64,000 bases of DNA from Yuukianura sp. NJ FZ-2021 (taxonomy: Eukaryota), in NCBI GenBank assembly GCA_046563655.1, contig CM102284.1, positions 6,634,001-6,698,000 on the forward strand, written 5' to 3'. Shown here one piece after another: positions 6,141-64,000 of the stretch; the stretch's first letter is position 1; every line of letters starts with the position of its first letter. The notes under the pieces were generated by a model. It was not told the origin of the DNA, did not search any database, and saw only the letters and a program-made list of their open reading frames with translations. The position numbers and the translations under genes were made by a program.

Positions 6141-7816
6141 ATGAAGGTGAAAGGTTGGAGAAAGAAGAGTTCCAGAATGAGCATAGACTCCGTATCGACT
6201 TCTAGCAGTAGCAGCGGTGTGACTAGTAGCGTTGAAATTTGTGCTAGAAATTTACTTGATGTTACGTTCAAATACACTTGGACGATCCAGGATTACCTTA
6301 ATCTCCTCGATTCCAAAGCGGACATTGACAGTCCCACTTTTGATGTAAACAGAAGCTAAATTACAAATTACAAATTACCACAACTTTTATTCTGATCAAT
6401 TTCTTATTTAATTGCACAAATTCTGGCTGAGTTTGTCGAAATTTTAAACAGAAATTCTCCCGTTCGAATCATTTTAAGCATTCATAACCTTCAAAATTTG
6501 TAATTCATTATCAAAATTTTCAGTTTCATTTGAATGGCCTCAGAACGAAATGGTCTTTGGCAATTCGGTACTGGAGTGACGAAGAAGGCGCTCGCCTTTC
6601 AGTAAGTTTTCGACACTTTCATTCTTCAGTTTAGTCAATGTCTAATATTTAAAAAATTCAAATTTTCATAGAATCCGGTTGTTGTTTGCCTAAATTTGGT
6701 TTCTTCCAACTGTGAAAGTCCTGAAGAAATTGAGGTTTGTGATTCGAAGAAAGTTTGGTTTAAATGCAAGAATAGTTTTTCGACCTAACGCGTAACGGCT
6801 TCATGCTTATCCTTAAATTTTCAATTTTCAAAATTTTGAAAAATTCTGCTCCATAGGTTCGCTACCAATTTGGTGTTTGGAATGACATCGTGAAGCAGTA
6901 TGAGATTTGTCCGTTAGACTCCCAGTTGCTTTCACTTTCTGGCCCAGTTTCACAGGATCTCATCAGTGTTGGCTACAGAGAAGTTTGCATTCTGGACCAA
7001 CATCTTCATCGTGGCAAAGATCATGTTGTGGAACTCTTTTGCAAAATTATGGTGGTAAGATTCACAATACCTAACTAAATTTCAACCTAACATTTTTAAC
7101 TTTAACTTTATGTGTATTTAGGTGAGAAGACAAGTAGAAGAAAACACTCTGGCCCTTGACCTTTGGAACAAAATGAAAAATCATGACCTCTGCGACGTCA
7201 CGCTCATTTCAACTGAAGGTGACGCTTTTCCGGCTCATAAAACCATTTTGTCCTGCCGTTCTGAAGGACTTCGGGAGCTCATTTCCAAGGTCACTGACAA
7301 TGAGGTCACGAAGGTCAATGACCTCGTTCATCTTAACTTGCCCACAACAGTGCTCACTGGTCTTCTGCAGTACATTTATACCGACAGAGTAGACCCTCTG
7401 AAAACGCCAAGTGCTTTGCTCAAAGTTGCTGTCAATTTCAAACTGCCTGGACTGAAGGTGACTTTCACCGACTTCAAATTTCACAAAATCCAAAAAAAAA
7501 GTTTCATTAAAAAGTTTGATCTTTTCAGAATATTTGTGAAAAGGCTTTGTTGGATTCGATTACTCCGGTGAACGTTGCCAACCTGTTGATGATTGCAGAT
7601 GCTTTCTCCTGCGAGAATCTCAAAAAAGCAGGATTGGCCTATGTTGAAGAAAATACGCGCTCCATTGTCAAGACCATTGCTTGGAAAGTCATGGAACATG
7701 TGAGTTCCAAAAAAAAACTCTAAATTTCAACTTTTTGAAGAAAAAAACTCCATTCTTGTGGTTTTTCTTAGGTGAATCCTGAACTGTTTGAGGAGGTTTG
7801 TCAATCCCAAGGGTGA
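6141..7816 (+). CDS. MATH-BTB(-BACK) protein, divergent SPOP/roadkill-like Cullin-3 adaptor; 7 coding exons
   Basis: Spliced reading gives a MATH-like part (FKYTWTIQDY...IDSPTF|FHLNGLRTKWSLAIRY), a BTB part (DLCDVTLISTEGDAFPAHKTILSCRS...LLQYIYTD) and a BACK-like part (LK|NICEKALLDSITPVNVANLLMIADAFSCENLKKA). Junctions are GT-AG and the stop is TGA at 7814-7816. Confidence 0.85.
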
Positions 7817-33630: not shown

Positions 33631-36531
33631 ATGGATACTGATAGCAGCGGTTCTGGAAATTCAGTGAACTCTGCAAAAGACCGAAAGGTCAAGAGGTCAC
33701 GGCGGAGAAAAAGTGGATACAGTGGGAGTGATCCAGAAAAAGCTCAAATACTCCCACCACAACACATTTTGTTCAGTTTAGAAGATTATGAAATTCTTCC
33801 AGGAGAATCAGCGGGAACTTCTGTTTTAACAGGACATGACGCCCTCCTCATTCCAAATTTTGTTGAACCGAGGTCAAGCGAGGTCAAATTGGACAATCCT
33901 GGAGCCGATTCTGGGTCAAATGTTAACCAACCCGAAGTGGGGTACACGAGACGACAGTGGATGATTTTACTGGTCTACTCATTTACTGAATTCTGTTCTG
34001 GAACTATCGTCAGTCTTCAGGTAATTTGTTAACTTTAATTAAACTACTTAATTTTAATTAACTTTGGTAATTTTTGTGCTAATACTAAATGTTTCATTTT
34101 AAAAGGCACCGTTCTATCCTGCAGAGGCTGAGAGAAAAGGGCTCACTGCTAGTGAATATGGAGCAGTCTTTGGAGTTTTTGAAGTCACTATTTTTCTAGC
34201 ATCATTCGTTTATGGAAAATATGTACGAAAATTTTTAATTAATTAGTAACATATATTTAATTTAAAGTTTTAAACTAACTGCACTTTTTTGTTTGAAAAG
34301 ATGAGCTATGTAGGTCCAAAATTTGTGTACAACTTTGGTCTCTTTGTCGTTGGCGTGTGTTGTGTAATGTTCGGGTAAATTTCACACAAGATCGAATCGA
34401 AATTGCAAAATTTCAATAACAATTTTTCAATTTTTGTTAAATTTGAAGGTTTCTGGACCGTGTCGAAGACCGTACATTGTTTTTTGCGTTATCAATGATC
34501 ACAAGAATATTTGCAGCAATGGGCGGTATATTGCAAACCAATTCTTCCCCAATTTTTCGGTTTTACAATTTGTGATTTTGAAATTTTGGACTTTTACGAA
34601 TTACAGATGCCGGTTGCGTAAATGCTGCGTTTACGATTGTTGCTCTCGAGTTTCCAAAAACAGTGGCTACAACTTTTGCAACAATGGAGACAATGTTTGC
34701 AGTTGGATTCACCGCTGGACCTATCATTGGTGGAGCTTTGTTTGAGGTGTGCAAACTTATGAAATAATTTTATACTTTTATTAATTTTTAATGTATTTTG
34801 GATGTAGCTTGGTGGATTTCCATTGCCGTTCTTTTCCTGTGGAACTCTGCTAGTTTTGCTCTCAATTTTTACTTTTCTTGTCCTTCCAACTCCAATTGAC
34901 AGAAACCAAGATTCGAAAAACTCCAAAGGCCTAATCCAACTTTTGCAAATTCCGGAAGTCATGATCGTTGCAATTGTCATTTTTACAACTGCGCTAAGCA
35001 TCGGTCACTTGGCCTCAACGCTTGAGCCACACATTCGAATGGTATTGCAGAAAAAATCGCTGATTTTTTTGTTTTTAAAATTTGGCTTCAGAACTACTGA
35101 TGTGGTGTGTTTTCAAATTTCAGTTTGGCCTAAGTTCTGTAGGCGTTGGAGTCATCATGGTAATGAATGGAGGAACGTATGCACTTTTGGCTCCTGTGTG
35201 GTAAAGCACAAAACGAAATTCACTCTTTCGAAATTTTGAAATTGAATTTGGAATAACAGGGGGAGACTATGTGACAAATTCCCGAGGTTGGATGTGTACA
35301 TGCTCATTGGTTGTATCTTTTTAATTATTGCGTTTCTTCTGGTTGGCCCAGCTCCATTTATGCCCTTTGACACGTAAGAGCTTTGATTTACTGTTAATTT
35401 TGATTTTTAACAGCCACGTAAAGAATAATTCAGAGTTGGACGACTGTGAGTGTCGGTTGCTAAAAAGTCACAGCGTGATTTGTGTTGATTTTTTGAGTGT
35501 CGTGCTCGTGCAGACTGCTATTGAAAAAGTTGATTCTCAATTTTGGCCGGGCGCTATGCGGAGATTATACGGAACAAAAAGGCTCCCGTTTTTTTTTCAA
35601 TTTTTGTGACGGCACGTTAAGTTTATGACGTCAATCTCGCATTCCCACACTTCGGCATTCCCATTTGCTTTACCAAAGAAGAAAATAATTATTTTTTATG
35701 TGGCGTCTAGTTGTAGCAATAGCAATTTCAGTTTCGAATTTTTTTTTTGAGTTTTGGAATTTATGAAAACTGAATTAATTTGAAAACTGTGTTTGCTTAA
35801 ATTATTAATTTTTGCAGGTAACACTGTAGTTAATTAGTAATTCATTACAGTTTGAATTAAGACAAAAATTAATATAATATCGTTAAACATTCCTCATTTT
35901 TTCAAGGATTCTGTGGGTGACATGCGTTGGATTGGTGTGTCAGGGAGTTGGCCTTGGAGGATGCCTCGTGTCTTCCTTCATACAGTGTCTTACCAGCGCA
36001 AAGTAATTTCTACAACTAAAAATTTTGCAAATTTTTGAAAATTGTTAGCATTTTGGTTAACTTTTGCCTAGTGCTCATGGATTTCCAGACAACGTATCCA
36101 CCTATAGTATGGTTAGTGGACTCTGGGCATCTTTGTTCTCATTAGGAGCATTCATTGGGCCAACGCTTTCTGGCGTAAGAGATTCAATTTGAACTAAATC
36201 GAAACAATTATTTGAATTTTCAAAAATTAGTTTAAATTTTGTGAAAATCCACTGAATCCAGGTATTGTATGACACTATCGGATTTCGAAACGGAACTCTA
36301 GTTGTCGTTGGCATTGAAAGTCTAGTTGTGAGTTTTCAACTAACTTACTTCAATTTTTAGTACACTGAAATCTCATTTTCACGACTAATTGTTCAATCAC
36401 TGAAAATCAATTAACAGGCAATTGCGATTGTGTGCATGATGTGTTTTGGCAGCAAACCTAAGCCTGGCAGTAGAAGAAGACTCAGCGAATTTACGGAGAG
36501 CGATTCACTTCTTGACAACGCAAGATCCTGA
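33631..36531 (+). CDS. SLC18B1: SLC18B1-like MFS transporter, paralog G
   Basis: Exon-by-exon paralog of F (GYTRRQWMILLVYSFTEFCSG...; FGSKPKPGSRRRLSEFTESDSLL); stop TGA at 36529-36531. Confidence 0.87.
35444..35821 (+). mobile_element. Dispersed repeat family, copy 4 (intronic in paralog G)
   Basis: ctgtgagtgtcggttgctaaaaagtcacagcgtgatttgtgttg...; a more diverged copy. Confidence 0.8.
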
Positions 36532-36753
36532 TTCACTTTCAGTTTTAGTGTATAAAATTGACACAAGACTGAATAAAATAGAATGTTTTTCTAAAATAGA
36601 CTTTTACAGTTTTTATTTTTCACCTTTTTTGTGTTTGTTTCCATAGAAACAGCACCGTGTTCAGGTTTCTTTTTAATAACATGCTTCTACTGACAGTAAA
36701 AAACACTTCAGGGTTTCATGGAAGGAACTGTACTCTGCAGATGAAAATTGAAA

Positions 36754-39700
36754 ATGAGCAGTGACAAAGATTTGGAAAATTTAGCAAGCACTACAACGGA
36801 AGATGTCAAGAGGTCACAAGATCAGGAAGGCGGAAATGATATACAAAAGGGAAGGAAACAAATTACTTTCAATTTAGAACGTGATGTGGAAAATTCAACG
36901 GTTGAAGAAACTGGGTCAGACGAGTTCAAAATTTTGTGGGACGATGCAGGATCGGACGTACATGACCCCGACGCGGGGCCACCGAAATATACTAAACGCC
37001 AACTCCTCATTTTTCTAGTTTACTCATTTACGGAGTTCGCTACTGGAGCTATCGTCAGTCTCCAAGTAATTTCCGAAATTTTGGAAATCATATCTTTCAA
37101 AAAGAATTTTTGAAACTGAATTTATGCGTTTTTTTCACAGGCCCCATTTTATCCTGCAGAGGCTGAGAAAAAAGGACTGAAAGCAAGTGAATATGGAGCT
37201 GTTTTTGGAGCTTTTGAATTTACTGTGTTTGTATCTTCATTCGTTTTTGGCAAATACGTAATACCGTGACACTAATCGATTTAAAACCCGAATCGGTTGA
37301 AATTTAAATTTACTTCTTCTTTCTGAAATTGCAGATGAGCCATGTGGGGCCGAAACTGTTTTTCAGTCTCGGTCTTTTTGTTGCCGGAGTCTGTTGCATT
37401 TTGTTTGGGTAAATCCCTCTTTGGAATTTAAATTCAAATTCAAAATTTCAAAAAACCAAAAGTTTAGTTAGGTTTGAAACTTTGGTTTTCTCGTTTTTCA
37501 GTCTATTAAATCGTGTAGAAGGACGCACACTTTTCTTTGCTCTGTCTATGATCACCAGGATTTGTGAAGGATTAGCAAGTGAGAACTTAACACTTAATTT
37601 CTGCACTACTTACTTTTAAGTCCTGCAACAAGAATTCATAATTTCAAAAATTTCATTTCCAAAATATTTTTCATATTTCCAGCTGCAGCGTGCTTAAATG
37701 CTGCGTTCACCATTATTGCATTGGAATTTCCGAAATCTGTAGCCACGACGTTTGCTACAATGGAGACGCTGTTTGCCGTTGGACTCACTTGTGGACCTAT
37801 TATTGGCGGACCTCTATTTCAGGTGTGTGTGTGTGATTTTTATAATAACTTTACATGATGTAAATTTTTTAATTAACTTTACAAATTTTCAGTTAATTTT
37901 AGTTTTTCTGTTGTTACAGTTCGGTGGATTTTCAGTGCCATTCTTCTCCTTCGGAAGCCTACTCGTCTTGGTTTCAATTTTTACGTACATCGTCCTTCCA
38001 ACTCCGATCGATACAAATGCAGACGTAGAAGATCCAAAAGGTTTGCTGCAACTTTTAAGAATTCCGGAAGTCATGTTGTCTGGACTGGTAATTGTTTCAA
38101 CTGCACTGAGCATCGGTCACTTGGAAGCTACACTTGAACCACACATTCGAAAGGTAAGTACTAGTAGAAAACGTTTCTTTTTGAGAAAAAGTTTTGAGGT
38201 CAAGGCCATTCGTTTCAGTTTGACCTCAGTTCTGTATCGGTGGGATTCATCATTGTGATTTCTGGCGGAATGTATGCAATTTCAGCTCCCTTGTGGTAAA
38301 GCAAAATCTACTGATCTTCTACAACAACTTTTAAGCAAGTCTAAACCGAATTTTAAAAAGACGAATTCAAATTTTAGGGGAAAATTGTGTGACAGAATCC
38401 CTCGACTGAATCTGTACATGCTCATTGGTTGCATTTTCATAATATTCGGATATGTCCTCATTGGTCCAGTGCAATTCCTACCATTTAACACGTAAGAACA
38501 GGCTGACCTTTGACATTTTGACATGTAGAATTTACGTGTAATACAATCTGTCCAGTAGTTTGAAGTAGTTTTGCTAGTACGCCACTTATAGGCTATTTTA
38601 ATTCAGAACAGTACAACAGTAAGTGTCGGTTCCTACAAAGTCACAGTGTGATTTGTGTTGATTTTTGCGTGTCGTGCAGACTGCTATCCAAAAAGTTGAA
38701 CCCTCGATTTTGGCCGGATTCTATGCGGAGATTATGCGGGACAAAAAGGTTCACGCCTCAACTTTTTTCTGTGACGTCACTCACTCTGCGTTTGTGACGT
38801 CACTGAACTTGCATTCAAATAATTTATTTTTACATGGCGTCTCACTGCAGCAATACAAATTTCGGTTTTGAAAATTATTTTTTTCGAGTTTTGGAAATTC
38901 GAAAAACTGAATTAATTTGAAAATTAGGTTTCTTATGTCACTAAATTGCAGGTAATTTTGCGTATATTAACTTAAATTAATTAAGGTCCGATAGTACTGC
39001 CATATCTTGAATTAGAACAAAAATAATTTAATTATTATTTATTTGGTTATTAATTATTAATGTAACAGTATGCTTAACATTTCTTGTTTTTTAATAGTAT
39101 TCTGTGGGTGACATGCGTTGGATTGGTGCTTCAGGGGATTGGACTTGGAGGATGCCTCGTGTCATCGTTCATCCAATGTCTCACAAGTGCCAAGTAACAA
39201 TCAATCTTAAAATTTCATTTTAAAAAACACAATTTTGTTCACAAAAAATGTCTAATTTCTCATCTAAATCTAAAACAAGTGTGCTAAATTTTGTGTTAAA
39301 AAGTGCTCATGGATTTCCTGACAATGTTTCCACCTACGGTATGGTTAGTGGACTCTGGGCGTCGTTGTTTTCCTTAGGAAATTTCTTTGGCCCAACTCTC
39401 GCTGGCGTAAGATGCCAAAATTAATTCCTCAAAATCAAATTTTTGATGAATTTGACATTCAATTTTTCAATTGTTCCAGGTACTTTATGATTCTGTTGGA
39501 TTTCGGAGCGGGACTCTATTTGTTATTGCGCTTGAAGTTGTTGATGTAAGATGCAAAAGCAAAATTGAAGATTTTTAAAAGATGGTGCATTAAATTGAAA
39601 GTGTTAATTACAGATAATTGCACTTGGATCAATGCTTGTTTTTGGCAAGAAACCGAAACGTGGAGCTAGAAGAAGACTCACAGAATTTACAGAAAGTGAT

Positions 39701-39760
39701 CCACTAGTACATAGGCGTAGTACAGTCATAGCTTATGATGAAATTCCTCATTTAGAGTAA
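36754..39760 (+). CDS. SLC18B1: SLC18B1-like MFS transporter, paralog H
   Basis: KYTKRQLLIFLVYSFTEFATG...SLQ|APFYPAEAEKKG with the same exon structure as F and G; stop TAA at 39758-39760. Confidence 0.87.
38617..38955 (+). mobile_element. Dispersed repeat family, copy 5 (intronic in paralog H)
   Basis: cagtaagtgtcggttcctacaaagtcacagtgtgatttgtgttg... with two gtgacgtcac; lies in the same homologous intron as copy 4. Confidence 0.82.
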
Positions 39761-39999
39761 TTAGTATTACAAATCAATTCAAAATTTCATAAGGCTGAAT
39801 TAAAAATTCAACAGTTTTGTCCCAAATTGACTAATTTTCAATTTCCATTCATAAAACAAAAAGTTTACGCGAATTTCATAATTTTAAATTTGCACATAAT
39901 GACAAAAAATCTGCAATCACATTATTTATTCCTGAAGAATGAATTTCTAATAAATTTTATGAGTTGAGGTGTTTCTTAAATCCAATTTTAGTTTTCAAA

Positions 40000-40398
40000 A
40001 TGCTTGTCAAGTATCAACAAGCTACTGGTGTGACTTTGCTGCTCTTTTTGTTGTTGCAAAGTTTTTGCAACGTTTCTGCAAAGACAATGGACCAAAACAG
40101 AACACTCGTCCGCCATGGCACTTTTGAGCAGAACGCATTGAACTTGGATCATGCAAAACCGAGACATGTAATTTTGAAATTCGAAATAAAATTTTTTTAA
40201 TACGTTTCAAAAAATGTTCACAGCAATATGAAAATTTTTGTTTTGCAGAAGCGCAGTTCTGATCCGGAAAAGAAAGCTTGGTTTCGTGGAAAGCTGATTG
40301 AATTTAAGAGAAAGCTGAGGAAGAAAATTTACTACACTGAAAAATGTCTTGTAAGGGAGGAAGATTATATTCACAGATGCATCAAGCATATGCTGTAA
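40000..40398 (+). CDS. Small secreted prepropeptide (105 aa, 2 exons): signal peptide, propeptide, RHKR site and a 47-aa cationic peptide
   Basis: Exon 1 at 40000-40167 (MLVKYQQATGVTLLLFLLLQSFCNVSA...KPRH) and exon 2 at 40249-40398 (KRSSDPEKK...CIKHML*), joined by a phase-0 GT-AG intron; AATAAA at about 40462. Confidence 0.72.
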
Positions 40399-40697
40399 AG
40401 CGAAAAATATGGAAAGATTTCAAAATTTGCAAAATTTCTAAAATTCAGTACAAACTTGGCGAATAAAGGCTATGTCAGTCTATCTTTAATCATTTGCAAT
40501 AAAATGTTGTTGTGTTTTTAGCACAAGGGTCATTGCACTCCGCTTTCTCCAACTGTATTCAGATTCCAGTTGTTTTCATAATTAGTTAACTACACATTTG
40601 AATTAATTGAGAGAAATTAACTGATAGAATTGATTGTTCCTCAATCATTTTCATCCAGAAAGTCCAGGTTCAAGTATTGTCCAAGTCTCACGTCAAA

Positions 40698-42347
40698 ATG
40701 AAGCTGCTCTTTTTCCTTTCTTTAGTCACTTTGGCCCAGTCCCAGTTTTTTGACCCCGTCATTGATGACAAAACGTATTTGGACCGAGTTGACCTGCAAC
40801 TTACAGCAGAAGTGGAGTCCTCTGCGATGGAATTGATTCAGCAAGCAAACATAACTGAAAAAGTTACAAAATCATACATTGCAATTAAGCTCAAGGACAA
40901 TGTTCTCAAGGTATTTCAAAATTTCAAACAAAAATTATGAAATCTCTTCCAAAACTCCAAAAAAAAATCTCAAAATCATAGGCTTTGCGAACATTGGCGC
41001 TTGCCGAAAGCGTAAATTTGGAAGAAACAGTTAAGAAACCATACCGAAGCGGGAGACAAGATGGAGGCGGCAGTTCTGGAGAATCGGACAACGCAGATTC
41101 CGAACAATCTGAAGGCGGTGACGACGAATCAGCCACGGAAAGAGCCACGACGCCTCTCACTGGTCTCAGCACTGCTGTCAAAATCAATCAAAACGTAAAA
41201 TTTCAAATTTCAATCAAAAGGTCCGCCGACAAAAGCGGATATACAAAATCGTACTCTTACAAAAGCGGATATACAAAATCGTACTCTTACAAAAGCGGAT
41301 CCTTACAAAAGCGGATTCCTACAAAAGCGTACCCTTACAAAATCGGATCCCTACAAAAGAGGATGCCGGGGTATCCTTGTTTTTGTTAAGTTTGTCATAG
41401 GTAGTTTCATGATTGGTGTTTAAAAAAAATTTGTGCGAATGATAGGGGTCAGGCTGAAGATGTAGACCGTGCCCCCGAGATGTTTATAGTTTCCCGCGCC
41501 GAAGGCGCGGTGTTAGGTTATTTAAAGTTCACAATTGTGATTAAGTCTATTGGTTAGGTTTTGTTTTTTAATTGATTTTAGGTTAATTTACGTTAGGTTA
41601 GGCTAACCTCGCACATATCCTCTTTTGTAGGGATCCGATTTTGTACGGGTCCGCTTTTGTAAGGATCCGCTTTTGAAGGGTACGAATTTGTAAAGTAGCT
41701 TTTGTAAATTGTACGCTTTTGTAAGAGTACGATTTTGTATATCCGCTTTTGTCGGCGAGTCCAATCAAAAATATTTCCAATTTTCAAAAAATGTGCAAAA
41801 TTACCACTTTTAGGTGTTTCAATTCATTGGAGAAGCAATTAAAACGATCTTCAAAGGTGTCGGAGGTGGTGGGGCCGCTGCTGGGAAGGCAGACGTGGCT
41901 CGTGAAGGACTCAACGATTCTTCCTTGACCACCGTTTTGCCAAGTCTGATGCTGCGCCCTTATGCAGAACAATTGGTTGGTATTGTCAATCTTTTTCGAA
42001 ATCCACCAAACAACTCTTCATCTCCGGCTGCTGGAAGTCTACCCGCCAGCCTCGATCGTCTTAACCCCTTCAAAGTCCTGTTTGGAAACAGAGCAAGTAC
42101 GTTTACCAGTGATTTTGAACATTTTTTTTTCCAAATTTCGAAAAAGTACTTTTTTTTTCTTCAAAAATTTACCTAAACAGGAGCCATGGATCCGGAACAG
42201 AAGGACGTGGTTGAGTACATTGAAAATGTGAGACAGACGTATCCAACTCTCCTTCCAGATTTGTACTCTGGAATTACAGAATCTCAGCGTCTTCTGGATG
42301 CCATGTCAAAGGTCGTCACTGGAATCCGTCAAGACTTCCATACCTGA
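40698..42347 (+). CDS. Uncharacterized secreted protein, 4 exons
   Basis: Signal peptide MKLLFFLSLVTLAQS. Exons at about 40698-40910, 40983-41194, 41814-42096 and 42181-42347 join in frame. Contains RSGRQ and an acidic Gly/Ser linker; stop TGA at 42345-42347. Confidence 0.72.
41220..41761. mobile_element. Foldback/MULE-like non-autonomous element with long modular TIRs and 9-bp TSD
   Basis: About 145-bp inverted arms built from roughly 15-bp acaaaagcggat-type subrepeats. Termini are ggtccgccgac and gtcggcgagtc. TSD caatcaaaa lies at 41211-41219 and 41762-41770. Confidence 0.88.
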
Positions 42348-42864
42348 AAAGCAGAAACACAGTTATAAATTAGTAATTAATTTAACTTTGCAAATGAATA
42401 ATTCAAGTTCCTTACCCTCATTTGCGAATCCGAATCCGACATAAAGCTATAATAGCTAAAATAGCATAAAAAGTGAATATCTTTCCGTTTTATTTCGTCA
42501 TGGAACATCGAGTAAAATTCACACTTGAAAAAAGTTCACTAACTTTTAGTACACAAGCAATGAGAACAACCTTAATTTCTATCAAGTACTAACTTAATTG
42601 ATAAGTGTTAAATCTTGGTTACTGAAATTTGTCAAGGAGCGAGGTCAAAGGTCAAGTCTTAAACTAGGGTGACCTTACAACTTCAACTCCTAAACTTGGC
42701 CGTACAAAATCACATATCAATTCACAACCAAAATAAGCAAAACTATAGGCCCCACTAACCTGTTACTAAATTTAGGTTAAACTAAATCTACTTGTCGTAG
42801 GTCATTGTGATGAACAGCATTATTTCAAAAAGTTGTGACCTGAGTGACGCTAACGCTTCCTCCT

Positions 42865-48223
<5,359 letters not shown>

Positions 48224-49295
48224 CTTGAATCCTCAAAGCAGCGACAGTGATATCAAGATCATGCCTTGAAATTCTACAGCTTTACGAATATCTTCTTTGG
48301 ATGCTAACTGATGATATCGAAGTCTTTGCAATACTTCTACCCTCCTCCGTCATCATCTTCTTCAGTACTCTGCTGAGTATACTAAATTCCTGTTGAATTC
48401 CATCTCTTCAATTATTTCTCACCTACTTCAACCGATTTGTGTTGTAATTGAGTATTCTCACGAACGATCCTTCGCCAAAATTAACTGACAATTTGATGTA
48501 GTAGCTCGATGCTCCTGTCCCACCGCCTTTAGATGACCAGTGTACCTCGTTTCTTCAAGTTTGAGTTAGCCTAAATGCGGTAGTAGTGGTGGTAAGTGAT
48601 TAGATAATAACTGTAAATTGAGGTCTTCAGGAGATGATGAGATCTTGTGTAATTTGGTTGCGTGTTTTGCAGATTTTCCTGTCTCCCAGAAGCACTCCAA
48701 TGTATATAACAGCTCACCAGCTGATTCTACGACAGAACAAAGGTTTTTACAACAATTAGAATTGAATAACCAAAGAGGTGCCAAACTATCGTCATCACTG
48801 CTCACCTTATTACCATTGTCGAGGAACAGTTAATTGTTATGTTTGGCCGTGACGAAGATGAGGGAGGCAAGATACGAGCAGCAACAGCAGGAGACAGCCC
48901 ATACAAGGCAGAGCTTCCTATTGTTCTCTTCACACCTCTTGAGTGGAGTCAGAGATGAGGAAATGCATCATGCCCAAAGGCAACCGATTTTCTTTACCTC
49001 AAAACTCCATTGTTGGAAGTCCTAACGTAGAAAAAAATGTTAATGTTACTTCTAAATATGGAAAGACCACTTAAAAGTAATTAACTTCTTACAAAACCAC
49101 TTACGCACTCTCATTTCTTGAGTTTCGGGTCGGAACATTCCAATGAATTGCTTAATTTACTTAATTAATCAAATTAAATTAAGTAAATAAATCCACAACA
49201 AAGAGTTCAACTTCACTTCAATTGTTTTTCAAAATGAACAAAGGATTTATTTCAGCAATTTTTCAAATTCAAAAATTTCCCACCAACACAGGAAG

Positions 49296-51463: not shown

Positions 51464-54400
51464 ATCTATTTTCCAATGGAAAATCTATTTTCCAATGGAA
51501 AATCTATTTTCCAATGGAAAATCTATTTTAGAATTGAAAATCTTTTTTCCAATGGAAAATCTTTTTTCCAATGCAAAATCTTTTTTCCAATGGAAAATCT
51601 CTTTTCCAATGGAAAATCTTTTTTCCAATGGAAAATCTTTTTTCCAATGGAAAATCTTTTTTCCAATGGAAAATCTTTTTTCCAATGGAAAATCTTTTTT
51701 CCAATGGAAAATCTTTTTTCCAATGGAAATCTTTTTTCCAATGGAAAATCTTTTTTCCAATGGAAATCTTTTTTCCAATGGAAAATCTTTTTTCCAATGG
51801 AAATCTTTTTTCCAATGGAAAATCTATTTTCCAATGGAAAATTTTCTTTCCAATGGAAAATTCAATGGAAAATTTTTTTCCAATGGAAATCTTTTTTCCA
51901 ATGGAAAATCTATTTTCCAATGGAAAATTTTCTTTCCAATGGAAATCTTTTTTCCAATGGAAAATCTTTTTTCCAATGGAAAATCTTTTTTCCAATGGAA
52001 ATCTTTTTTCCAATGGAAAATCTATTTTCCAATGGAAAATTTTCTTTCCAATGGAAAATTTTTTTTCCAATTTTTCCAATGGAAAATCTTTTTTCCAATG
52101 GAAAATCTATTTTCCAATGGAAAATTTATTTTCCAATGGAAAATCTTTTTCCAATGGAAAATCTTTTTCCAATGGAAAATCTATTTTCCAATGGAAAATC
52201 TATTTTCCAATGGAAAATCTTTTTTCCAATGGAAAATGGAAAATCTTTTTTTCCAATGGAAAATCTATTTTCCAATGGAAAATCTTTCTTCCAGTGGAAA
52301 ATGGAAAATCTTTTTTCCAATGGAAAATCTATTTTCCAATGGAAAATCTATTTTCCAATGGAAAATCTATTTTCCAATGGAAAATCTATTTTCCAATGGA
52401 AAATCTATTTTCCAATGGAAAATCTATTTTCCAATGGAAAATCTATTTTCCAATGGAAAATCTATTTTCCAATGGAAAATCTATTTTCCAATGGAAAATC
52501 TATTTTCCAATGGAAAATCTATTTTCCAATGGAAAATCTATTTTCCAATGGAAAATCTATTTTCCAATGGAAAATCTATTTTCCAATGGAAAATCTATTT
52601 TCCAATGGAAAATCTATTTTCCAATGGAAAATCTTTTTTCCAATGGAAAATCTATTTTCCAATGGAAAATCTATTTTCCAATGGAAAATCTTTTTTCCAA
52701 TGGAAAATCTATTTTCCAATGGAAAATCTATTTTCCAATGGAAAATCTATTTTCCAATGGAAAATCTATTTTCCAATGGAAAATCTATTTTCCAATGGAA
52801 AATCTATTTTCCAATGGAAAATCTATTTTCCAATGGAAAATTTTTTTCCAATGGAAAATCCTTTTTCCATTGAAATCTTTTTTCCAATGGAAAATCTATT
52901 TTCCAATGGAAAATCTACTTTCCAATGGAAAATCTATTTTCCAATGGAAAATCTATTTTCCAATGGAAAATCTATTTTCCACCGGAAAATCTATTCTCCA
53001 ATGGAAAATCTATTTTCCAATGGAAAATCTATTTTCCAATGGAAAATCTATTTTCCAATGGAAAATCTATTTTCCAATGGAAAATCTTTTTTCCAATGGA
53101 AAATCTATTTTCCAATGGAAAATCTATTTTCCAATGGAAAATCTATTTTCCAATGGAAAATCTTTTTTCCAATGGAAAATCTATTTTCCAATGGAAAATC
53201 TATTTTCCAATGGAAAATCTTTTTTCCAATGGAAAATCTTTTTTCCAATGGAAAATCTTTTTTCCAATGGAAAATCTTTTTTCCAATGGAAAATCTTTTT
53301 TCCAATGGAAAATCTATTTTCCAATGGAAAATTTTCTTTCCAATGGAAAATTTTTTTTCCAATGGAAAATTTTCCAATGGAAATCTTTTTTCCAATGGAA
53401 AATCTATTTTCCAATGGAAAATTTTCTTTCCAATGGAAAATTTTTTTTCCAATGGAAAATCTTTTTCCAATGGAAAATCTATTTTCCAATGGAAAATCTA
53501 TTTTCCAATGGAAAATCTTTTTCCAATGGAAAATCTATTTTCCAATGGAAATCTTTTTTCCAATGGAAAATCTATTTTCCAATGGAAAATTTTCTTTCCA
53601 ATGGAAAATTTTTTTTCCAATGGAAAATCTTTTTTCCAATGGAAAATCTATTTTCCAATGGAAAATCTATTTTCCAATGGAAAATCTTTTTCCAATGGAA
53701 AATCTTTTTCCAATGGAAAATCTTTTTCCAATGGAAAATCTTTTTCCAATGGAAAATCTATTTTCCAATGGAAAATCTATTTTCCAATGGAAAATCTGCT
53801 TTCCAATGGAAAATTTTTTTCCAATGGAAAATGTTTTTCCAATGGAAAATTTTTTTCCAATGGAAAATCCATTTTCCAATGGAAAATTTTTTTCCAATGG
53901 AAAATCTATTTTCCAATGGAAAATCTATTTTCCAATGGAAAATCTATTTTCCAATGGAAAATCTATTTTCCAATGGAAAATCTTTTTTCCAATGGAAAAT
54001 CTTTTTCCAATGGAAAATCTTTTTCCAATGGAAAATCTTTTTCCAATGGAAAATCTATTTTCCAATGGAAAATCTTTTTTCCAATGGAAAATCTATTTTC
54101 CAATGGAAAATCTATTTTCCAATGGAAAATCTTTTTTCCAATGGAAAATCTTTTTTCCAATGGAAAATCTATTTTCCAATGGAAAATCTATTTTCCAATG
54201 GAAAATCTTTTTTCCAATGGAAAATCTATTTTCCAATGGAAAATTTTCTTTCCAATGGAAAATCTTTTTTCCAATGGAAAATCTTTTTTCCAATGGAAAA
54301 TCTATTTTCCAATGGAAAATCTATTTTCCAATGGAAAATTTTCTTTCCAATGGAAAATCTATTTTCCAATGGAAAATCTATTTTCCAATGGAAAATCTAT

Positions 54401-57400
54401 TTTCCAATGGAAAATCTATTTTCCAATGGAAAATTTTCTTTCCAATGGAAAATCTATTTTCCAATGGAAAATCTATTTTCCAATGGAAAATCTATTTTCC
54501 AATGGAAAATCTATTTTCCAATGGAAAATGGAAAATCTTTTTTCCAATGGAAAATCTATTTTCCAATGGAAAATCTATTTTCCAATGGAAAATCTATTTT
54601 CCAATGGAAAATCTATTTTCCAATGGAAAATCTATTTTCCAATGGAAAATCTATTTTCCAATGGAAAATCTATTTTCCAATGGAAAATTTTCTTTCCAAT
54701 GGAAAATCTATTTTCCAATGGAAAATCTATTTTCCAATGGAAAATCTATTTTCCAATGGAAAATCTATTTTCCAATGGAAAATCTATTTTCCAATGGAAA
54801 ATCTATTTTCCAATGGAAAATCTATTTTCCAATGGAAAATCTATTTTCCAATGGAAAATCTATTTTCCAATGGAAAATCTATTTTCCAATGGAAAATCTA
54901 TTTTCCAATGGAAAATCTATTTTCCAATGGAAAATCTATTTTCCAATGGAAAATCTATTTTCCAATGGAAAATCTATTTTCCAATGGAAAATCTATTTTC
55001 CAATGGAAAATCTATTTTCCAATGGAAAATCTATTTTCCAATGGAAAATCTATTTTCCAATGGAAAATCTTGTTTCCAATGGAAAATCTATTTTCCAATG
55101 GAAAATCTATTTTCCAATGGAAAATCTTTTTTCCAATGGAAAATCTATTTTCCAATGGAAAATCTTTTTCCAATGGAAAATCTTTTTCCAATGGAAAATC
55201 CTTTTTCCAATGGAAAATCTATTTTCCAATGGAAAATCTATTTTCCAATGGAAAATCTATTTTCCAATGGAAAATCTATTTTCCAATGGAAAATCCTTTT
55301 TCCAATGGAAAATCCTTTTTCCAATGGAAAATCTATTTTCCAATGGAAAATTTTCTTTCCAATGGAAAATTTTTTTTTCCAATGGAAAATCTTTTTTCCA
55401 ATGGAAAATCTATTTTCCAATGGAAAATCTTTTTTCCAATGGAAAATGGAAAATCTATTTTCCTATGGAAAATCTATTTTCCAATGGAAAATCTTTTTTC
55501 CAATGGAAAATCTTTTTTCCAATGGAAAATCTTTTTTCCAATGGAAAATCTTTTTTCCAATGGAAAATTTTTTTCCAATGGAAAATCTATTTTCCAATGG
55601 AAAATCTTTTTTCCAATGGAAAATCTATTTTCCAATGGAAAATCTATTTTCCAATGGAAAATCTTTTTTCCAATGGAAAATCTTTTTTCCAATGGAAAAT
55701 CTATTTTCCAATGGAAAATCTTTTTTCAATGGAAAATCTTTTTTCAATGGAAAATCTTTTTTCCAATGGAAAATTTTCTTTCCAATGGAAAATTTTTTTT
55801 CCAATGGAAAATCTTTTTTCCAATGGAAATCTTTTTTCCAATGGAAAATCTATTTTCCAATGGAAAATTTTCTTTCCAATGGAAAATTTTTTTTCCAATG
55901 GAAAATCTTTTTTCCAATGGAAAATCTATTTTCCAATGGAAAATCTATTTTCCAATGGAAAATCTTTTTCCAATGGAAAATCTATTTTCCAATGGAAAAT
56001 CTATTTTCCAGTGGAAAATCTATTTTCCAATGGAAAATTTTCTTTCCAATGGAAAATCTTTTTTCCAATGGAAAATCTTTTTTCCAATGGAAAATCTATT
56101 TTCCAATGGAAAATCTATTTTCCAATGGAAAATCTTTTTTCCAATGGAAAATCTTTTTTCCAATGGAAATCTTTTTTCCAATGGAAAATCTATTTTCCAA
56201 TGGAAAATTTTCTTTCCAATGGAAAATTATGGAAATCTTTTTTCCAATGGAAAATCTATTTTCCAATGGAAAATTTTCTTTCCAATGGAAAATTTTTTTT
56301 CCAATGGAAAATCTTTTTTCCAATGGAAAATCTATTTTCCAATGGAAAATCTATTTTCCAATGGAAAATCTTTTTTCCAATGGAAAATCTTTTTTCCAAT
56401 GGAAAATCTTTTTTCCAATGGAAAATCTTTTTCCAATGGAAAATCTTTTTCCAATGGAAAATCTATTTTCCAATGGAAAATCTTTTTTCCAATGGAAAAT
56501 CTATTTTCCAATGGAAAATCTATTTTCCAATGGAAAATCTTTTTTCCAATGGAAAATCTTTTTTCCAATGGAAAAAATCTTTTTTCCAATGGAAAATCTA
56601 TTTTCCAATGGAAAATTTTCTTTCCAATGGAAAATCTTTTTTCCAATGGAAAATCTTTTTCCCAATGGAAAATCTTTTTTCCAATGGAAAATCTATTTTC
56701 CAATGGAAAATCTATTTTCCAATGGAAAATTTTTTTCCGATGGAAAATTTTTTTCCAATGGAAAATTTTTTTCCAATGGAAAATCTATTTTCCAATGGAA
56801 AATTTTTTTCCAATGGAAAATTTTTTTCCAATGGAAAATTTTTTTCCAATGGAAAATCTATTTTCCAATGGAAAATTTTTTTCCAATGGAAAATGGAAAA
56901 TCTATTTTCCAATGGAAAATCTATTTTCCAATGGAAAATCTATTTTCCAATGGAAAATCTTTTTCCAATGGAAAATCTTTTTCCAATGGAAAATCTTTTT
57001 CCAATGGAAAATTTATTTTTCAATGGAAAATTTATTTTCCAATGGAAAATCTTTTTTCCAATGGAAAATCTTTTTTCCAATGGAAAATTTATTTTCCAAT
57101 GGAAAATCTTTTTTCCAATGGAAAATCTTTTTTCAATGGAAAATCTTTTTTCCAATGGAAAAGCTTTTTCCAATGGAAAATTTTTTTTCCAATGGAAAAT
57201 CTATTTTCCAATGGAAAATCTGCTTTCCAATGGAAAATTTTTTTCCAATGGAAAATGTTTTTCCAATGGAAAATTTTTTTCCAATGGAAAATCTATTTTC
57301 CAATGGAAAATTTTTTTCCAATGGAAAATTTTTTTCCAATGGAAAATCTATTTTCCAATGGAAAATCTTTTTTCCAATGGAAAATCTATTTTCCAATGGA

Positions 57401-60400
57401 AAATCTTTTTTCCAATGGAAAATCTTTTTTCCAATGGAAAATGGAAAATCTTTTTTCCAATGGAAAATCTTTTTTCCAATGGAAAATCTTTTTTCCAATG
57501 GAAAATCTTTTTTCCAATGGAAAATCTATTTTCCAATGGAAATCTTTTTTCCAATGGAAAATCTATTTTCCAATGGAAAATCTATTTTCCAATGGAAATC
57601 TTTTTTCCAATGGAAATCTTTTTTCCAATGGAAAATCTTTTTTCCAATGGAAAATTTTTTTCCAATGGAAATCTTTTTTCCAATGGAAAATCTATTTTCC
57701 AATGGAAAATTTTCTTTCCAATGGAAAATCTTTTTTCCAATGGAAAATTTTTTTCCAATGGAAATCTTTTTTCCAATGGAAAATCTATTTTCCAATGGAA
57801 AATTTTCTTTCCAATGGAAAATTTTTTTTCCAATGGAAAATCTTTTTTCCAATGGAAAATCTTTTTTCCAATGGAAATCTTTTTTCCAATGGAAAATCTA
57901 TTTTCCAATGGAAAATTTTCTTTCCAATGGAAAATTTTTTTTCCAATGGAAAATCTTTTTTCCAATGGAAAATCTATTTTCCAATGGAAAATCTATTTTC
58001 CAATGGAAAATCTATTTTCCAATGGAAAATCTATTTTCCTATGGAAAATCTATTTTCCAATGGAAAATTTTTTTTCCAATGGAAAATCCTTTTTCCAATG
58101 AAATCTTTTTTCCAATGGAAAATCTATTTTCCAATGGAAATCTTTTTTCCAATGGAAAATCTATTTTCCAATGGAAAATCTATTTTCCAATGGAAATCTT
58201 TTTTCCAATGGAAAATCTTTTTTCCAATGGAAAATCTTTTTTCCAATGGAAAATCTTTTTTCCAATGGAAAATCTTTTTTCCAATGGAAAATCTATTTTC
58301 CAATGGAAAATTTTCTTTCCAATGGAAAATTTTTTTTCCAATGGAAAATCTTTTTTCCAATGGAAATCTTTTTTCCAATGGAAAATCTATTTTCCAATGG
58401 AAAATTTTCTTTCCAATGGAAAATTTTTTTTCCAATGGAAAATCTTTTTTCCAATGGAAAATCTTTTTTCAATGGAAAATCTTTTTTCAATGGAAAATCT
58501 TTTTCCAATGGAAAATCTTTTTCCAATGGAAAATCTATTTTCCAATGGAAAATCTATTTTCCAATGGAAAATCCTTTTTCCAATGGAAAATCCTTTTTCC
58601 AATGGAAAATCCTTTTTCCAATGGAAAATCCTTTTTCCAATGGAAAATCTATTTTCCAATGGAAAATCTATTTTCCAATGGAAAATCTTTTTTCCAATGG
58701 AAAATCTTTTTTCCAATGGAAAATCTTTTTCCAATGGAAAATCTTTTTTCCAATGGAAAATCTTTTTTCCAATGGAAAATCTATTTTCCAATGGAAAATT
58801 TTCTTTCCAAAAATCTTTTTTCCAATGGAAAATCTATTTTCCAATGGAAAATTTATTTTCCAATGGAAAATCTTTTTTCCAATGGAAAATCTTTTTTCCA
58901 ATGGAAAATCTTTTTTCCAATGGAAAATCTTTTTTCCAATGGAAAATCTATTTTCCAATGGAAAATTTTCTTTCCAATGGAAAATTTTTTTTCCAATGGA
59001 AAATCTTTTTTCCAATGGAAAATCTTTTTTCCAATGGAAAATGGAAAATCTTTTTTCCAATGGAAAATCTATTTTCCAATGGAAAATCTATTTTCCAATG
59101 GAAAATCTTTTTCCAATGGAAAATCTATTTTCCAATGGAAAATCTTTTTTCCAATGGAAAATCTATTTTCCAATGGAAAATCTTTTTCCAATGGAAAATC
59201 TTTTTCCAATGGAAAATGGAAAATCTATTTTCCAATGGAAAATCTATTTTCCAATGGAAAATCTATTTTCCAATGGAAAATCTATTTTCCAATGGAAAAT
59301 CTATTTTCCAATGGAAAATCTATTTTCCAATGGAAAATCTATTTTCCAATGGAAAATCTATTTTCCAATGGAAAATCTATTTTCCAATGGAAAATCTATT
59401 TTCCAATGGAAAATCTATTTTCCAATGGAAAATCTATTTTCCAATGGAAAATCTATTTTCCAATGGAAAATCTATTTTCCAATGGAAAATCTATTTTCCA
59501 ATGGAAAATCTATTTTCCAATGGAAAATCTATTTTCCAATGGAAAATCTATTTTCCAATGGAAAATCTATTTTCCAATGGAAAATCTATTTTCCAATGGA
59601 AAATCTTTTTCCAATGGAAAATCTTTTTCCAATGGAAAATCTTTTTCCAATGGAAAATCTTTTTCCAATGGAAAATTTATTTTTCAATGGAAAATTTATT
59701 TTTCAATGGAAAATTTATTTTCCAATGGAAAATCTTTTTTCCAATGGAAAATCTTTTTTCCAATGGAAAATCTATTTTCCAATGGAAAATCTTTTTCCAA
59801 TGGAAAATCTATTTTCCAATGGAAAATCTATTTTCCAATGGAAAATCTATTTTCCAATGGAAAATCTATTTTCCAGTGGAAAATCTATTTTCCAATGGAA
59901 AATTTTCTTTCCAATGGAAAATGGAAAATCTTTTTTCCAATGGAAAATCTATTTTCCAATGGAAAATCTTTTTCCAATGGAAAATCTATTTTCCAATGGA
60001 AAATCTATTTTCCAATGGAAAATCTTTTTTCCAATGGAAAATCTATTTTCCAATGGAAAATCTTTTTCCAATGGAAAATCTTTTTTCCAATGGAAAATCT
60101 ATTTTCCAATGGAAAATCTATTTTCCAATGGAAAATCTATTTTCCAATGGAAAATCTATTTTCCAATGGAAAATCTTTTTTCCAATGGAAAATCTTTTTT
60201 CCAATGGAAAATCTATTTTCCAATGGAAAATCTATTTTCCAATGGAAAATCTATTTTCCAATGGAAAATCTATTTTCCAATGGAAAATCTATTTTCCAAT
60301 GGAAAATCTATTTTCCAATGGAAAATTCTTTTTCGGAAAATCTATTTTCCAATGGAAAATCTATTTTCCAATGGAAAATCTATTTTCCAATAGAAAATCT

Positions 60401-63400
60401 TTTTCCAATGGAAAATCTTTTTCCAATGGAAAATCTTTTTTCCAATGGAAAATCTTTTTTCCAATGGAAAATCTTTTTCCAATGGAAAATTTATTTTCCA
60501 ATGGAAAATCTTTTTTCCAATGGAAAATCTTTTTCCAATGGAAAATCTTTTTCCAATGGAAAATTTATTTTCCAATGGAAAATTTATTTTCCAATGGAAA
60601 ATCTTTTTTCCAATGGAAAATCTTTTTTCAATGGAAAATCTTTTTCCAATGGAAAATTTATTTTCCAATGGAAAATTTTTTTCCAATGGAAAATCTATTT
60701 TCCAATGGAAAATTTTTTTCCAACGGAAAATTTTTTTCCAATGGAAAATTTTTTTCAATGGAAAATAGATTTTCCAATGGAAAATTTTTTTCCAATGGAA
60801 AATCTATTTTCCAATGGAAAATCTATTTTCCAATGGAAAATCTTTTTTCCAATGGAAAATGGAAAATCTTTTTTCCAATGGAAAATCTATTTTCCAATGG
60901 AAAATCTATTTTCCAATGGAAAATCTATTTTCCAGTGGAAAATCTATTTTCCAATGGAAAATCTTTTTCCAATGGAAAATGGAAAATCTATTTTCCAATG
61001 GAAAATCTATTTTCCAATGGAAAATCTATTTTCCAATGGAAAATCTATTTTCCAATGGAAAATCTATTTTCCAATGGAAAATCTATTTTCCAATGGAAAA
61101 TCTATTTTCCAATGGAAAATCTATTTTCCAATGGAAAATCTATTTTCCAATGGAAAATCTATTTTCCAATGGAAAATCTATTTTCCAATGGAAAATCTAT
61201 TTTCCAATGGAAAATCTATTTTCCAATGGAAAATCTATTTTCCAATGGAAAATCTATTTTCCAATGGAAAATCTATTTTCCAATGGAAAATCTATTTTCC
61301 AATGGAAAATCTATTTTCCAATGGAAAATCTATTTTCCAATGGAAAATCTTTTTTCCAATGGAAAATCTTTTTTCCAATGGAAAATCTTTTTTCCAATGG
61401 AAAATTTTTTTCCAATGGAAATCTTTTTTCCAATGGAAAATCTATTTTCCAATGGAAAATTTTCTTTCCAATGGAAAATTTTTTTTCCAATGGAAAATCT
61501 ATTTTCCAATGGAAAATCTTTTTTCCAATGGAAAATCTATTTTCCAATGGAAAATTTTCTTTCCAATGGAAAATTTTTTTTCCAATGGAAAATCTTTTTT
61601 CCAATGGAAATCTTTTTTCCAATGGAAAATCTATTTTCCAATGGAAAATTTTCTTTCCAATGGAAAATTTTTTTTCCAATGGAAAATCTTTTTTCCAATG
61701 GAAAATCTTTTTTCCAATGGAAAATCTTTTTTCCAATGGAAATCTTTTTTCCAATGGAAAATCTATTTTCCAATGGAAAATTTTCTTTCCAATGGAAAAT
61801 TTTTTTTCCAATGGAAAATCTTTTTTCCAATGGAAAATCTTTTTTCCAATGGAAAATCTATTTTCCAATGGAAAATTTATTTTCCAATGGAAAATCTTTT
61901 TTCCAATGGAAAATGGAAAATCTTTTTTCCAATGGAAAATCTATTTTCCAATGGAAAATCTATTTTCCAATGGAAAATTTTTTCCAATGGAAAATGGAAA
62001 ATCTTTTTTCCAATGGAAAATCTTTTTTCCAATGGAAAATCTATTTTCCAATGGAAAATCTATTTTCCAATGGAAAATCTATTTTCCAATGGAAAATCTA
62101 TTTTCCAATGGAAAATGGAAAATCTTTTTTCCAATGGAAAATCTATTTTCCAATGGAAAATGGAAAATCTCAATGGAAAATCTTTTTTCAATGGAAAATC
62201 TTTTTCCAATGGAAAATCTTTTTCCAATGGAAAATTTATTTTCCAATGGAAAATTTATTTTCCAATGGAAAATCTTTTTCCAATGGAAAATCTTTTTCCA
62301 ATGGAAAATCTTTTTCCAATGGAAAATCTTTTTCCAATGGAAAATCTTTTTTCCAATGGAAAATTTATTTTCCAATGGAAAATCTTTTTTCCAATGGAAA
62401 ATTTATTTTCCAATGGAAAATCTATTTTCCAATGGAAAATCTTTTTTCCAATGGAAAATATATTTTCCAATGGAAAATCTTTTTTCCAATGGAAAATCTT
62501 TTTTCAATGGAAAATCTTTTTTCCAATGGAAAAGCTTTTTCCAATGGAAAATTTATTTTCCAATGGAAAATTTATTTTCCAATGGAAAATCTTTTTTCCA
62601 ATGGAAAATCTATTTTCCAATGGAAAATCTATTTTCCAATGGAAAATCTATTTTCCAATGGAAAATCTATTTTCCAATGGAAAATCTATTTTCCAATGGA
62701 AAATCTTTTTCCAATGGAAAATCTTTTTCCAATGGAAAATCTATTTTCCAACGGAAAATCTTTTTCCAATGGAAAATCTTTTTCCAATGGAAAATTTATT
62801 TTTCAATGGAAAATCTATTTTCCAATGGAAAATCTATTTTCCAATGGAAAATCTATTTTCCAATGGAAAATCTATTTTCCAATGGAAAATGGAAAATCTT
62901 TTTTCCAATGGAAAATCTATTTTCCAATGGAAAATCTATTTTCCAATGGAAAATCTATTTTCCAATGGAAAATCTTTTTTCCAATGGAAAATGGAAAATC
63001 TTTTTTCCAATGGAAAATCTATTTTCCAATGGAAAATCTATTTTCCAATGGAAAATCTATTTTCCAATGGAAAATCTATTTTCCAATGGAAAATCTATTT
63101 TCCAATGGAAAATCTATTTTCCAATGGAAAATCTATTTTCCAATGGAAAATCTATTTTCCAATGGAAAATGGAAAATCTTTTTTCCAATGGAAAATCTAT
63201 TTTCCAATGGAAAATCTTTTTCCAATGGAAAATCTTATTTTCCAATGGAAAATTTATTTTCCAATGGAAAATCTTTTTTCCAATGGAAAATCTTTTTCCA
63301 ATGGAAAATCTTTTTTCCAATGGAAAATCTATTTTCCAATGGAAAATCTATTTTCCAATGGAAAATCTATTTTCCAATGGAAAATCTATTTTCCAATGGA

Positions 63401-64000
63401 AAATCTATTTTCCAATGGAAAATCTATTTTCCAATGGAAAATCTATTTTCCAATGGAAAATCTATTTTCCAATGGAAAATCTATTTTCCAATGGAAAATC
63501 TATTTTCCAATGGAAAATCTATTTTCCAATGGAAAATCTATTTTCCAATGGAAAATCTATTTTCCAATGGAAAATCTTTTTCCAATGGAAAATCTATTTT
63601 CCAATGGAAAATCTTTTTTCCAATGGAAAATCTTTTTTCCAATGGAAAATCTATTTTCCAATGGAAAATCTATTTTCCAATGGAAAATCTATTTTCCAAT
63701 GGAAAATCTTTTTTCCAATGGAAAATCTTTTTTCCAATGGAAAATCTATTTTCCAATGGAAAATCTTTTTTCCAATGGAAAATCTATTTTCCAATGGAAA
63801 ATCTTTTTTCCAATGGAAAATCTTTTTCCAATGGAAAATCTTTTTCCAATGGAAAATCGTTTTCCAATGGAAAATCTTTTTCCAATGGAAAATCTATTTT
63901 CCAATGGAAAATCTATTTTCCAATGGAAAATCTATTTTCCAATGGAAAATCTATTTTCCAATGGAAAATCTTTTTTCCAATGGAAAATCTATTTTCCAAT
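51464..64000. repeat. Satellite array with 19-bp consensus TGGAAAATCTATTTTCCAA and 18/19-bp variants; runs off the window end
   Basis: Continuous tandem repetition over about 12.5 kb, roughly 660 units by length/19. Confidence 0.99.

Follow-up and report, generated by a model that had tools for sequence, protein, structure and literature searches.

A two-exon gene predicted to encode a convertase-processed cationic peptide, with a syntenic orthologue on a metagenome contig

Results

Gene content of the locus

The stretch of DNA analyzed here (64,000 nucleotides, hereafter the window) contains at 40000..40398, on the plus strand, what appears from its sequence to be a real, two-exon, protein-coding gene for a small precursor. 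An earlier note on this DNA had proposed a hidden two-exon gene at this position, and both exons, the GT..AG intron between them and the sequence for the proposed 40167/40249 junction are all present, giving a predicted spliced product of 105 aa. The features of the gene are listed here, with L001 denoting the metagenome contig that carries the orthologous locus described below.

40000..40167 (+): coding portion of exon 1 (56 codons), starting at the first ATG within open frame 39943-40200
40000..40080 (+): predicted signal peptide, residues 1-27, cut after V-S-A, from hydropathy and the -3/-1 rule applied by eye
40081..40167 (+): predicted propeptide, residues 28-56, continuing as K-R at 40249-40254, from the translation
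40162..40167 (+): R-H half (P4, P3) of R-H-K-R, with R-Q at the equivalent place in L001
40168..40248 (+): intron, 81 nt, phase 0, GTAATT...TTTTGCAG, with its GT at 40168-40169
40249..40398 (+): exon 2, 49 codons plus stop, from the translation
40249..40254 (+): K-R half (P2, P1) of R-H-K-R, with R-R at the equivalent place in L001; predicted cleavage after R58
40255..40395 (+): predicted mature 47-aa peptide, a cationic long helix, short loop and C-terminal helix, from the translation, AlphaFold2 and conservation
40396..40398 (+): stop codon TAA, at which nucleotide similarity to L001 stops
40462..40467 (+): AATAAA, by eye a candidate polyadenylation signal, 64 nt past the stop codon

Splicing is the sole route from exon 1 to exon 2 in the window because an in-frame stop sits in the intron. 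The donor agrees with the consensus at 7 of 9 positions, ranking top among the phase-0 GT sites in the frame, and GTAATT seemingly serves as a donor in the adjacent tankyrase gene as well (by eye). We also scanned both strands of window 1-51400 for a pattern combining a first-ATG ORF that starts signal-like, a donor in phase 0 with at least 5/9 consensus, a pyrimidine-rich AG acceptor, R-x-[KR]-R across the junction, and a terminal ORF that measures 30-80 aa and has an even Cys count. The single match was the 40000..40398 gene, and 20 first-order Markov shuffles gave none. Because this pattern was devised post hoc, after the gene had been seen, we use the scan only as support; the syntenic orthologue on L001 makes the stronger case against chance. 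No Rfam family was found within 36000-44000.

Upstream of the peptide gene, about 9467-39760 (+) is occupied by multi-exon genes for transporter-like membrane proteins, paralogous to one another and arranged in tandem, with at least six similar N-terminal exons near 9467, 22043, 25339, 29167, 33610 and 36745. One transporter-like exon gave a sub-threshold match to MFS_1 (E 9.3e-05, 21.9 bits versus a cut-off of 33.4), and the final copy stops at 39760, which is 240 nt upstream of the ATG of the peptide gene. A BTB/POZ exon lies farther upstream at 7122-7568 (+) (PF00651, E 2.1e-14).

Downstream, the next gene (40698-42347, +; L001 2023-3185) has a signal-like N-terminus and a first exon reaching to about 40910-40913. 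Its exon 1 is 65% identical in protein to L001, several later exons are conserved, and neither exon 1 nor two later open frames matched a Pfam family. By these comparisons the gene would be a second conserved secreted protein outside the known families, adjoining the peptide gene in both species. One of its introns holds a foldback, MITE-like element (41212-41757) with 16-nt sub-repeats and perfectly complementary 44-nt arms (41224-41267 and 41714-41757). At the corresponding site in L001 the conserved blocks lie 58 nt apart (2577 to 2636), compared to about 615 nt in the window; the element was therefore either inserted in the lineage of the window or lost in that of L001. Beyond this gene comes a tankyrase gene (42865-48232, -) with ankyrin repeats, a SAM domain and a PARP catalytic domain, divided by many short introns. 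The remainder of the window, 51464-64000 (12.5 kb), is a satellite of a 19-nt unit (ATCTATTTTCCAATGGAAA; 661.7 copies, 92% matches) that runs past the window end; it has about 26% GC versus 34-43% elsewhere in the window and its several open frames result only from its repetitive make-up.

An orthologous locus on a metagenome contig

An exhaustive phmmer search over 1,835,955,588 representatives (E <=0.001), using the 49 exon 2 residues as query, returned a sole match, the 161-aa protein P0003, whose last 49 residues align to the query with 67% identity (E 4e-15). P0003 is a singleton (a 90% cluster with 1 member) from L001, a JGI metagenome contig of 5,057 bp; in retrieving this contig, 415 stretches matched a pattern and 1 was confirmed. 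L001 is collinear with window 40241-44239 by blastn and tblastx, in the following blocks.

L001 1540-1698, window 40241-40399: exon 2 of the peptide gene (blastn/tblastx)
L001 2023-2238, window 40698-40913: first exon of the next gene (blastn/tblastx)
L001 2516-2577, 2636-2690 and 3015-3185, window 41135-41196, 41812-41866 and 42177-42347: further exons of the next gene
L001 3719-5057, window 42890-44239: tankyrase gene (blastn/tblastx)

Conservation of the peptide gene starts right at the acceptor and stops at the stop codon. Exon 2 is identical to L001 at 104 of 150 nt (69%) without gaps, and at 67% in protein. Identity is 42% in the 5' flank, 47% in exon 1 (with 39 gap columns), 37% in the intron outside its last 8 nt and 52% in the 3' flank, and the 8 nt of the acceptor are identical at 8/8. 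Differences within exon 2 (49 codons, no indels) comprise 14 in first, 9 in second and 23 in third codon positions, giving pN of 0.21, pS of 0.71 and a dN/dS of about 0.12 from one sequence pair with saturated dS. Judged from this substitution pattern, the reading frame of exon 2 is under purifying selection. The 33 invariant columns among the 49 of exon 2 (40249-40395) include both Cys at equal spacing, almost every basic residue in the helix and the four residues at the C-terminal end.

A predicted intron also lies in L001 (1461-1547, 87 nt, GT...TTTTGCAG) at the equivalent codon boundary, such that the spliced junction reads R-Q / R-R. It is open in frame, so that read-through is possible, and for this reason the ORF caller read through it, yielding P0003. 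The L001 donor, GTTCTC, agrees with the consensus at 5 of 9 positions and is the top phase-0 donor of its frame, but is weak compared to the other L001 donors (GTACGT, GTAAGT and GTAAGC). Each of the two introns is a multiple of three in length (81 nt in the window, 87 nt in L001), and each contains an in-frame ATG.

Upstream of this intron, L001 has an ATG at 1254 and a second in-frame ATG at 1212. Translation from 1254 gives a hydrophobic N-terminus with, by eye, G-E-A at -3..-1 ahead of I25. When the window and L001 were compared by aligning their exon 1 peptides, 20 of 1000 shuffles reached the score of the whole exon, a marginal result, and the pro-regions taken by themselves are not alignable (609 of 1000 shuffles reached the observed score). 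The order of parts is common to both loci: a signal-like start, a pro-piece, R-x-[KR]-R and a conserved tail. The precursor architecture that the earlier note had proposed is supported by L001, which keeps the position and phase of the intron, the acceptor (8/8) and the Cys spacing, with a dN/dS near 0.12 across exon 2.

We found no tandem paralogues of the peptide in the window or in L001 by tblastn. The best other tblastn match, 23 residues at 1304-1369 (-) (E 0.002), was taken as chance, its frame being broken by stops. The peptide gene would accordingly count as single-copy at this locus, as judged from these two stretches, and the window and L001 hold the only two sequences known.

N-terminus, pro-region and junction motif

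The precursor begins with a hydrophobic stretch (maximum Kyte-Doolittle hydropathy of 3.23 for residues 11-19 in a 9-residue window), followed by V-S-A at -3..-1 ahead of K28, which by eye agrees with the small-residue rule. If the signal is cleaved after residue 27, a pro-piece of about 31 residues remains. A signal peptide and a propeptide of about 30 aa had been proposed earlier, and both the hydropathy and the by-eye V-S-A site support this structure.

At the phase-0 junction, the codons AGA CAT / AAG CGC join R-H to K-R, so that the R-H-K-R motif previously reported to span the exon junction is confirmed at the codon level, and L001 has R-Q-R-R at the same place. R-x-[KR]-R is the furin-type convertase consensus, and conservation of the P4 Arg, four residues ahead of the cut, favours a site of furin type over a plain dibasic or PC2-type one. 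The presence of the P4 Arg in both species marks the junction motif as a putative furin-type site, and we consider cleavage there probable. Enzymes of this class occur in the group: collembolans are described as possessing genes for furin1 (with a duplication in Folsomia), for furin2 and for PC (PMC8244231).

Predicted mature tail

The 47-residue tail contains 14 K/R (30%), 7 D/E and 2 His, with Cys at positions 31 (codon 40345-40347) and 42 (codon 40378-40380), corresponding to residues 33 and 44 of exon 2. The K/R, D/E and Cys values reproduce, from the translation, the composition given in the earlier note. The net charge is +7 in the window and +9 in L001, and the frame closes with K-H-M-L-stop in both. 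A C-terminal Gly (with basic residues) that would signal amidation is absent from the window and from L001; such a signal is not required of every peptide hormone.

AlphaFold2, run on the two-sequence alignment, modeled helices at exon 2 residues 6-36 and 40-48 (mean pLDDT 79.2), separated by a three-residue break that is flanked by Cys 33 and Cys 44. In this model the Cys placement fits a disulfide that would staple the short helix onto the long one, and the break is supported because the first half of the loop in L001 reads G-S-P. The modeled helices agree with the previously suggested design of a cationic helix followed by a C-terminal disulfide loop. The long helix is strongly basic with a narrow hydrophobic stripe and is only moderately amphipathic: in 18-residue windows, its hydrophobic moment is mostly 0.04-0.53 in the window species, rising to 0.64 at the C-terminal end, and 0.08-0.70 in L001, and its mean hydrophobicity is below zero in all such windows. 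Its hydrophobic residues are spaced 3-4 apart, resembling a coiled-coil seam by eye.

Searches against known families

The peptide had not been assigned to a family in the earlier note, and our searches of Pfam, PDB and the ESM Atlas, together with phmmer and Foldseek, likewise gave no known family. No Pfam family matched exon 1, exon 2 or the 161-aa ORF of L001 at E <=1, with cecropin and the other Pfam antimicrobial peptide families included in the search. A word-based protein search for exon 2 among longer proteins gave 4 candidates, none at E <=10, and the same search with P0003 as query recovered only P0003 itself among 25 candidates. Sequence search of the PDB gave 7 matches, all at E >=0.58 and none credible, and Foldseek found 0 matches to the PDB at E <=10. 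The ESM Atlas gave a top score of 0.88, against clusters without names, and the recognition value of 1438 was under the level of known families.

We also looked for the peptide in the literature by word searches and by string look-up in supplements, and did not find it there. Four motif strings of the peptide are absent from the 68,594-character supplement of PMC10051947, by string look-up as opposed to alignment. Within the accessible portion of PMC4770511, a neuropeptide survey across non-pterygote hexapods, the peptide is not among the families named, and the motif strings had no match in its 8,023-character supplement text, which is too small to hold precursor sequences. As judged from these searches, the peptide gene would represent a family without known relatives within a known kind, the convertase-processed secreted precursors.

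Host lineage and taxonomic range

The tankyrase gene was informative about the host. A 252-aa piece of it, from the SAM to the PARP region, is 61% identical to Orchesella dallaii and 56% to Folsomia candida, compared to at most 47% for insects and crustaceans among the matches listed. Because tankyrase matches springtails best, the window probably represents collembolan DNA or that of some other hexapod, close to springtails and not an insect, and at these identities its species most likely belongs to neither Orchesella nor Folsomia. The PARP exon of tankyrase is 95% identical in protein between L001 and the window, which suggests that L001 is from a related species. A nematode origin had been considered on account of the T-rich TTTTGCAG acceptors, the short introns and the 35% GC, and with it trans-splicing and an operon with the upstream gene; it was rejected in view of the springtail-like tankyrase.

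No relative of the peptide beyond P0003 was found at E <=0.001 among the 1,835,955,588 representatives. The phmmer library derives from the same collection as that of the word-based search, whose matches included proteins of Orchesella and Folsomia. In these two genera, the peptide may thus be missing, may lack annotation, or may have diverged so far that a query of 49 residues does not reach it.

Discussion

Proposed processing and role

We consider it very probable that the gene and its secreted-precursor architecture are correct as described. In the processing that we propose, the N-terminal 27 residues would direct the protein into the ER co-translationally, where the two Cys of the tail would join as one disulfide. 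A furin-type proprotein convertase would then cut after R-H-K-R (R-Q-R-R in L001) late in the secretory pathway, freeing for secretion a strongly basic 47-aa C-terminal peptide (net +7, or +9 in L001). The released 47-mer would fold into a long and then a short helix, with a loop between them and a Cys31-Cys42 staple, and its basic helix may bind polyanionic targets such as microbial surfaces. The whole reading, of a real gene for a furin-released cationic peptide that acts as a lineage-restricted effector of the host-defence type, receives a probability of roughly 45% from us, based on the sequence comparisons above.

Our lean toward host defence follows from three properties: the tail is 30% K/R with a net charge of +7 to +9, the P4 Arg is conserved at a furin-type site, and the taxonomic range is apparently narrow, P0003 being the sole relative. 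Several insect immune precursors carry a furin-type site. Against a membrane-lytic role stand the narrow hydrophobic stripe, the negative mean hydrophobicity and the moderate moment of the long helix, and the 7 acidic residues of the tail and the lack of tandem paralogues in the window and L001 speak against the host-defence reading more broadly.

Comparison with known peptides

Furin-processed defence precursors of insects (pro-defensin, pro-attacin, lebocin and Baramicin) have a signal peptide, a poorly conserved pro-piece, R-x-[KR]-R and a basic peptide. The 40000..40398 precursor is predicted to share this layout, in which a basic peptide is freed toward the C-terminus, but has no sequence, Pfam or fold match. 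Defensins have three disulfides, whereas the peptide described here has one Cys pair and is neither Gly- nor Pro-rich, and in comparison with the insect defence precursors it is known so far from two related hexapods.

In the prohormones of allatostatin-C, elevenin and ENF/GBP, the pro-region varies, whereas the C-terminal peptide that follows a basic site is conserved and has a single Cys pair. The precursor shares all of these properties with them, but its peptide is much longer, far more basic and without an amidation signal, and shows no sequence similarity by phmmer or Pfam. Ranid 'Rana box' peptides (brevinin/esculentin type) are vertebrate peptides with a 7-residue basic ring, and are similar in having a cationic helix followed by a C-terminal loop closed by a disulfide. 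The ring described here differs in having 12 residues, in being partly acidic in the window species and in closing a predicted helix-loop-helix, and the comparison does not suggest common descent.

Among the known antimicrobial peptides of collembolans, described in the accessible portion of PMC10051947 as five families (diapausin, Alo and diptericin, together with defensin and cecropin) with 45 genes found by homology only, the cecropins are similar to the tail in being basic, about 40 residues long and predicted to form two helices. Cecropins (PF00272) are reported there from the springtail Sinella curviseta, the mean share of positively charged residues given in that paper is 25.7%, compared to 30% K/R in the tail, and collembolan cecropins are described as lacking Cys, with a mature part of 38-41 aa directly behind the signal peptide and without a long pro-piece (PMC10051947). 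In contrast, the peptide described here has two conserved Cys and a propeptide of about 31 aa, and has no Pfam match at E <=1.

Alternative readings

The main rival to host defence retains the gene and its processing and takes the product to be a signalling peptide with a receptor as its target, be it a hormone, a neuropeptide or a ligand resembling cytokines. C-terminal disulfide-looped peptides of this kind occur in the precursors of allatostatin-C, elevenin, MCH and the ENF/GBP cytokines. The pattern of conservation resembles that of a prohormone, with a mature part that is conserved (33/49, dN/dS of about 0.12) and a pro-region that is unalignable (609/1000), and the locus is single-copy, while the amphipathicity of the helix is only moderate. 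Residue identities are conserved beyond mere charge, extending to the invariant loop and C-terminus, and this would suit a receptor ligand equally. The conserved basic clusters within the tail could also serve as further cleavage sites yielding smaller peptides, and in a variant of the signalling reading such extra cuts may leave a C-terminal piece that carries the disulfide loop. However, neither an amidation signal nor a Pfam family match was found, 47 residues at net +7 to +9 would be unusual among arthropod neuropeptides, and retention of the P4 Arg fits furin-type processing better than PC2-type. In addition, no relative outside one lineage turned up in the phmmer search, whereas neuropeptide families are usually old and widespread. 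We regard signalling as somewhat unlikely and lean toward host defence over it.

A less probable reading, which we rate as distinctly unlikely, holds that the product is a small secreted protein that is uncleaved at the junction motif, or that serves neither defence nor signalling, as would a reproductive, salivary or digestive, or matrix-binding protein or a coiled-coil dimer. The coiled-coil-like spacing of 3-4 residues between hydrophobic positions and the resemblance of the basic clusters to polyanion-binding motifs would both suit such a role, but R-x-[KR]-R has been retained in both species despite a pro-region that cannot be aligned.

That the two-exon model itself is wrong, with exon 2 belonging to another transcript (through a different upstream exon or as an unspliced short ORF) or the conserved block being non-coding, is very improbable. 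In its favour, the intron ATG of the window is in frame with exon 2, a hydrophobic stretch follows the one in L001, each intron has a length divisible by three and the L001 donor is weak. Against it, conservation is bounded exactly by the acceptor and the stop codon, third codon positions vary most, and the intron-internal starts give dissimilar N-termini in the two species, whereas the two-exon reading yields in each of them a signal peptide, a pro-region and R-x-[KR]-R. Moreover, blastn and tblastx found no similarity to the upstream transporter gene of the window within 1.2 kb upstream in L001, and 36000-44000 contains no Rfam family.

Significance

Small secreted peptide genes routinely escape annotation, and in a collection of 15 billion proteins this peptide was found only within one metagenome ORF that had been mis-called by read-through. 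On the present evidence, drawn from two loci, it may be described as one more taxonomically restricted secreted peptide, of which animal genomes commonly hold examples. More tentatively than the host-defence reading of this one gene, we propose that the two sequences may belong to a family of peptides, not described before and confined to springtails, with a cationic helix-loop-helix fold, a disulfide staple and release by furin. Such a family would serve either as a new arthropod host-defence class or as a new hexapod hormone or cytokine without an insect counterpart. Springtails inhabit microbe-rich soil, and a family lacking homologues elsewhere would extend the antimicrobial picture of springtails and supply a candidate peptide. 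Should the product act in signalling, it would enlarge the peptide-hormone set of hexapods by a lineage-specific member.
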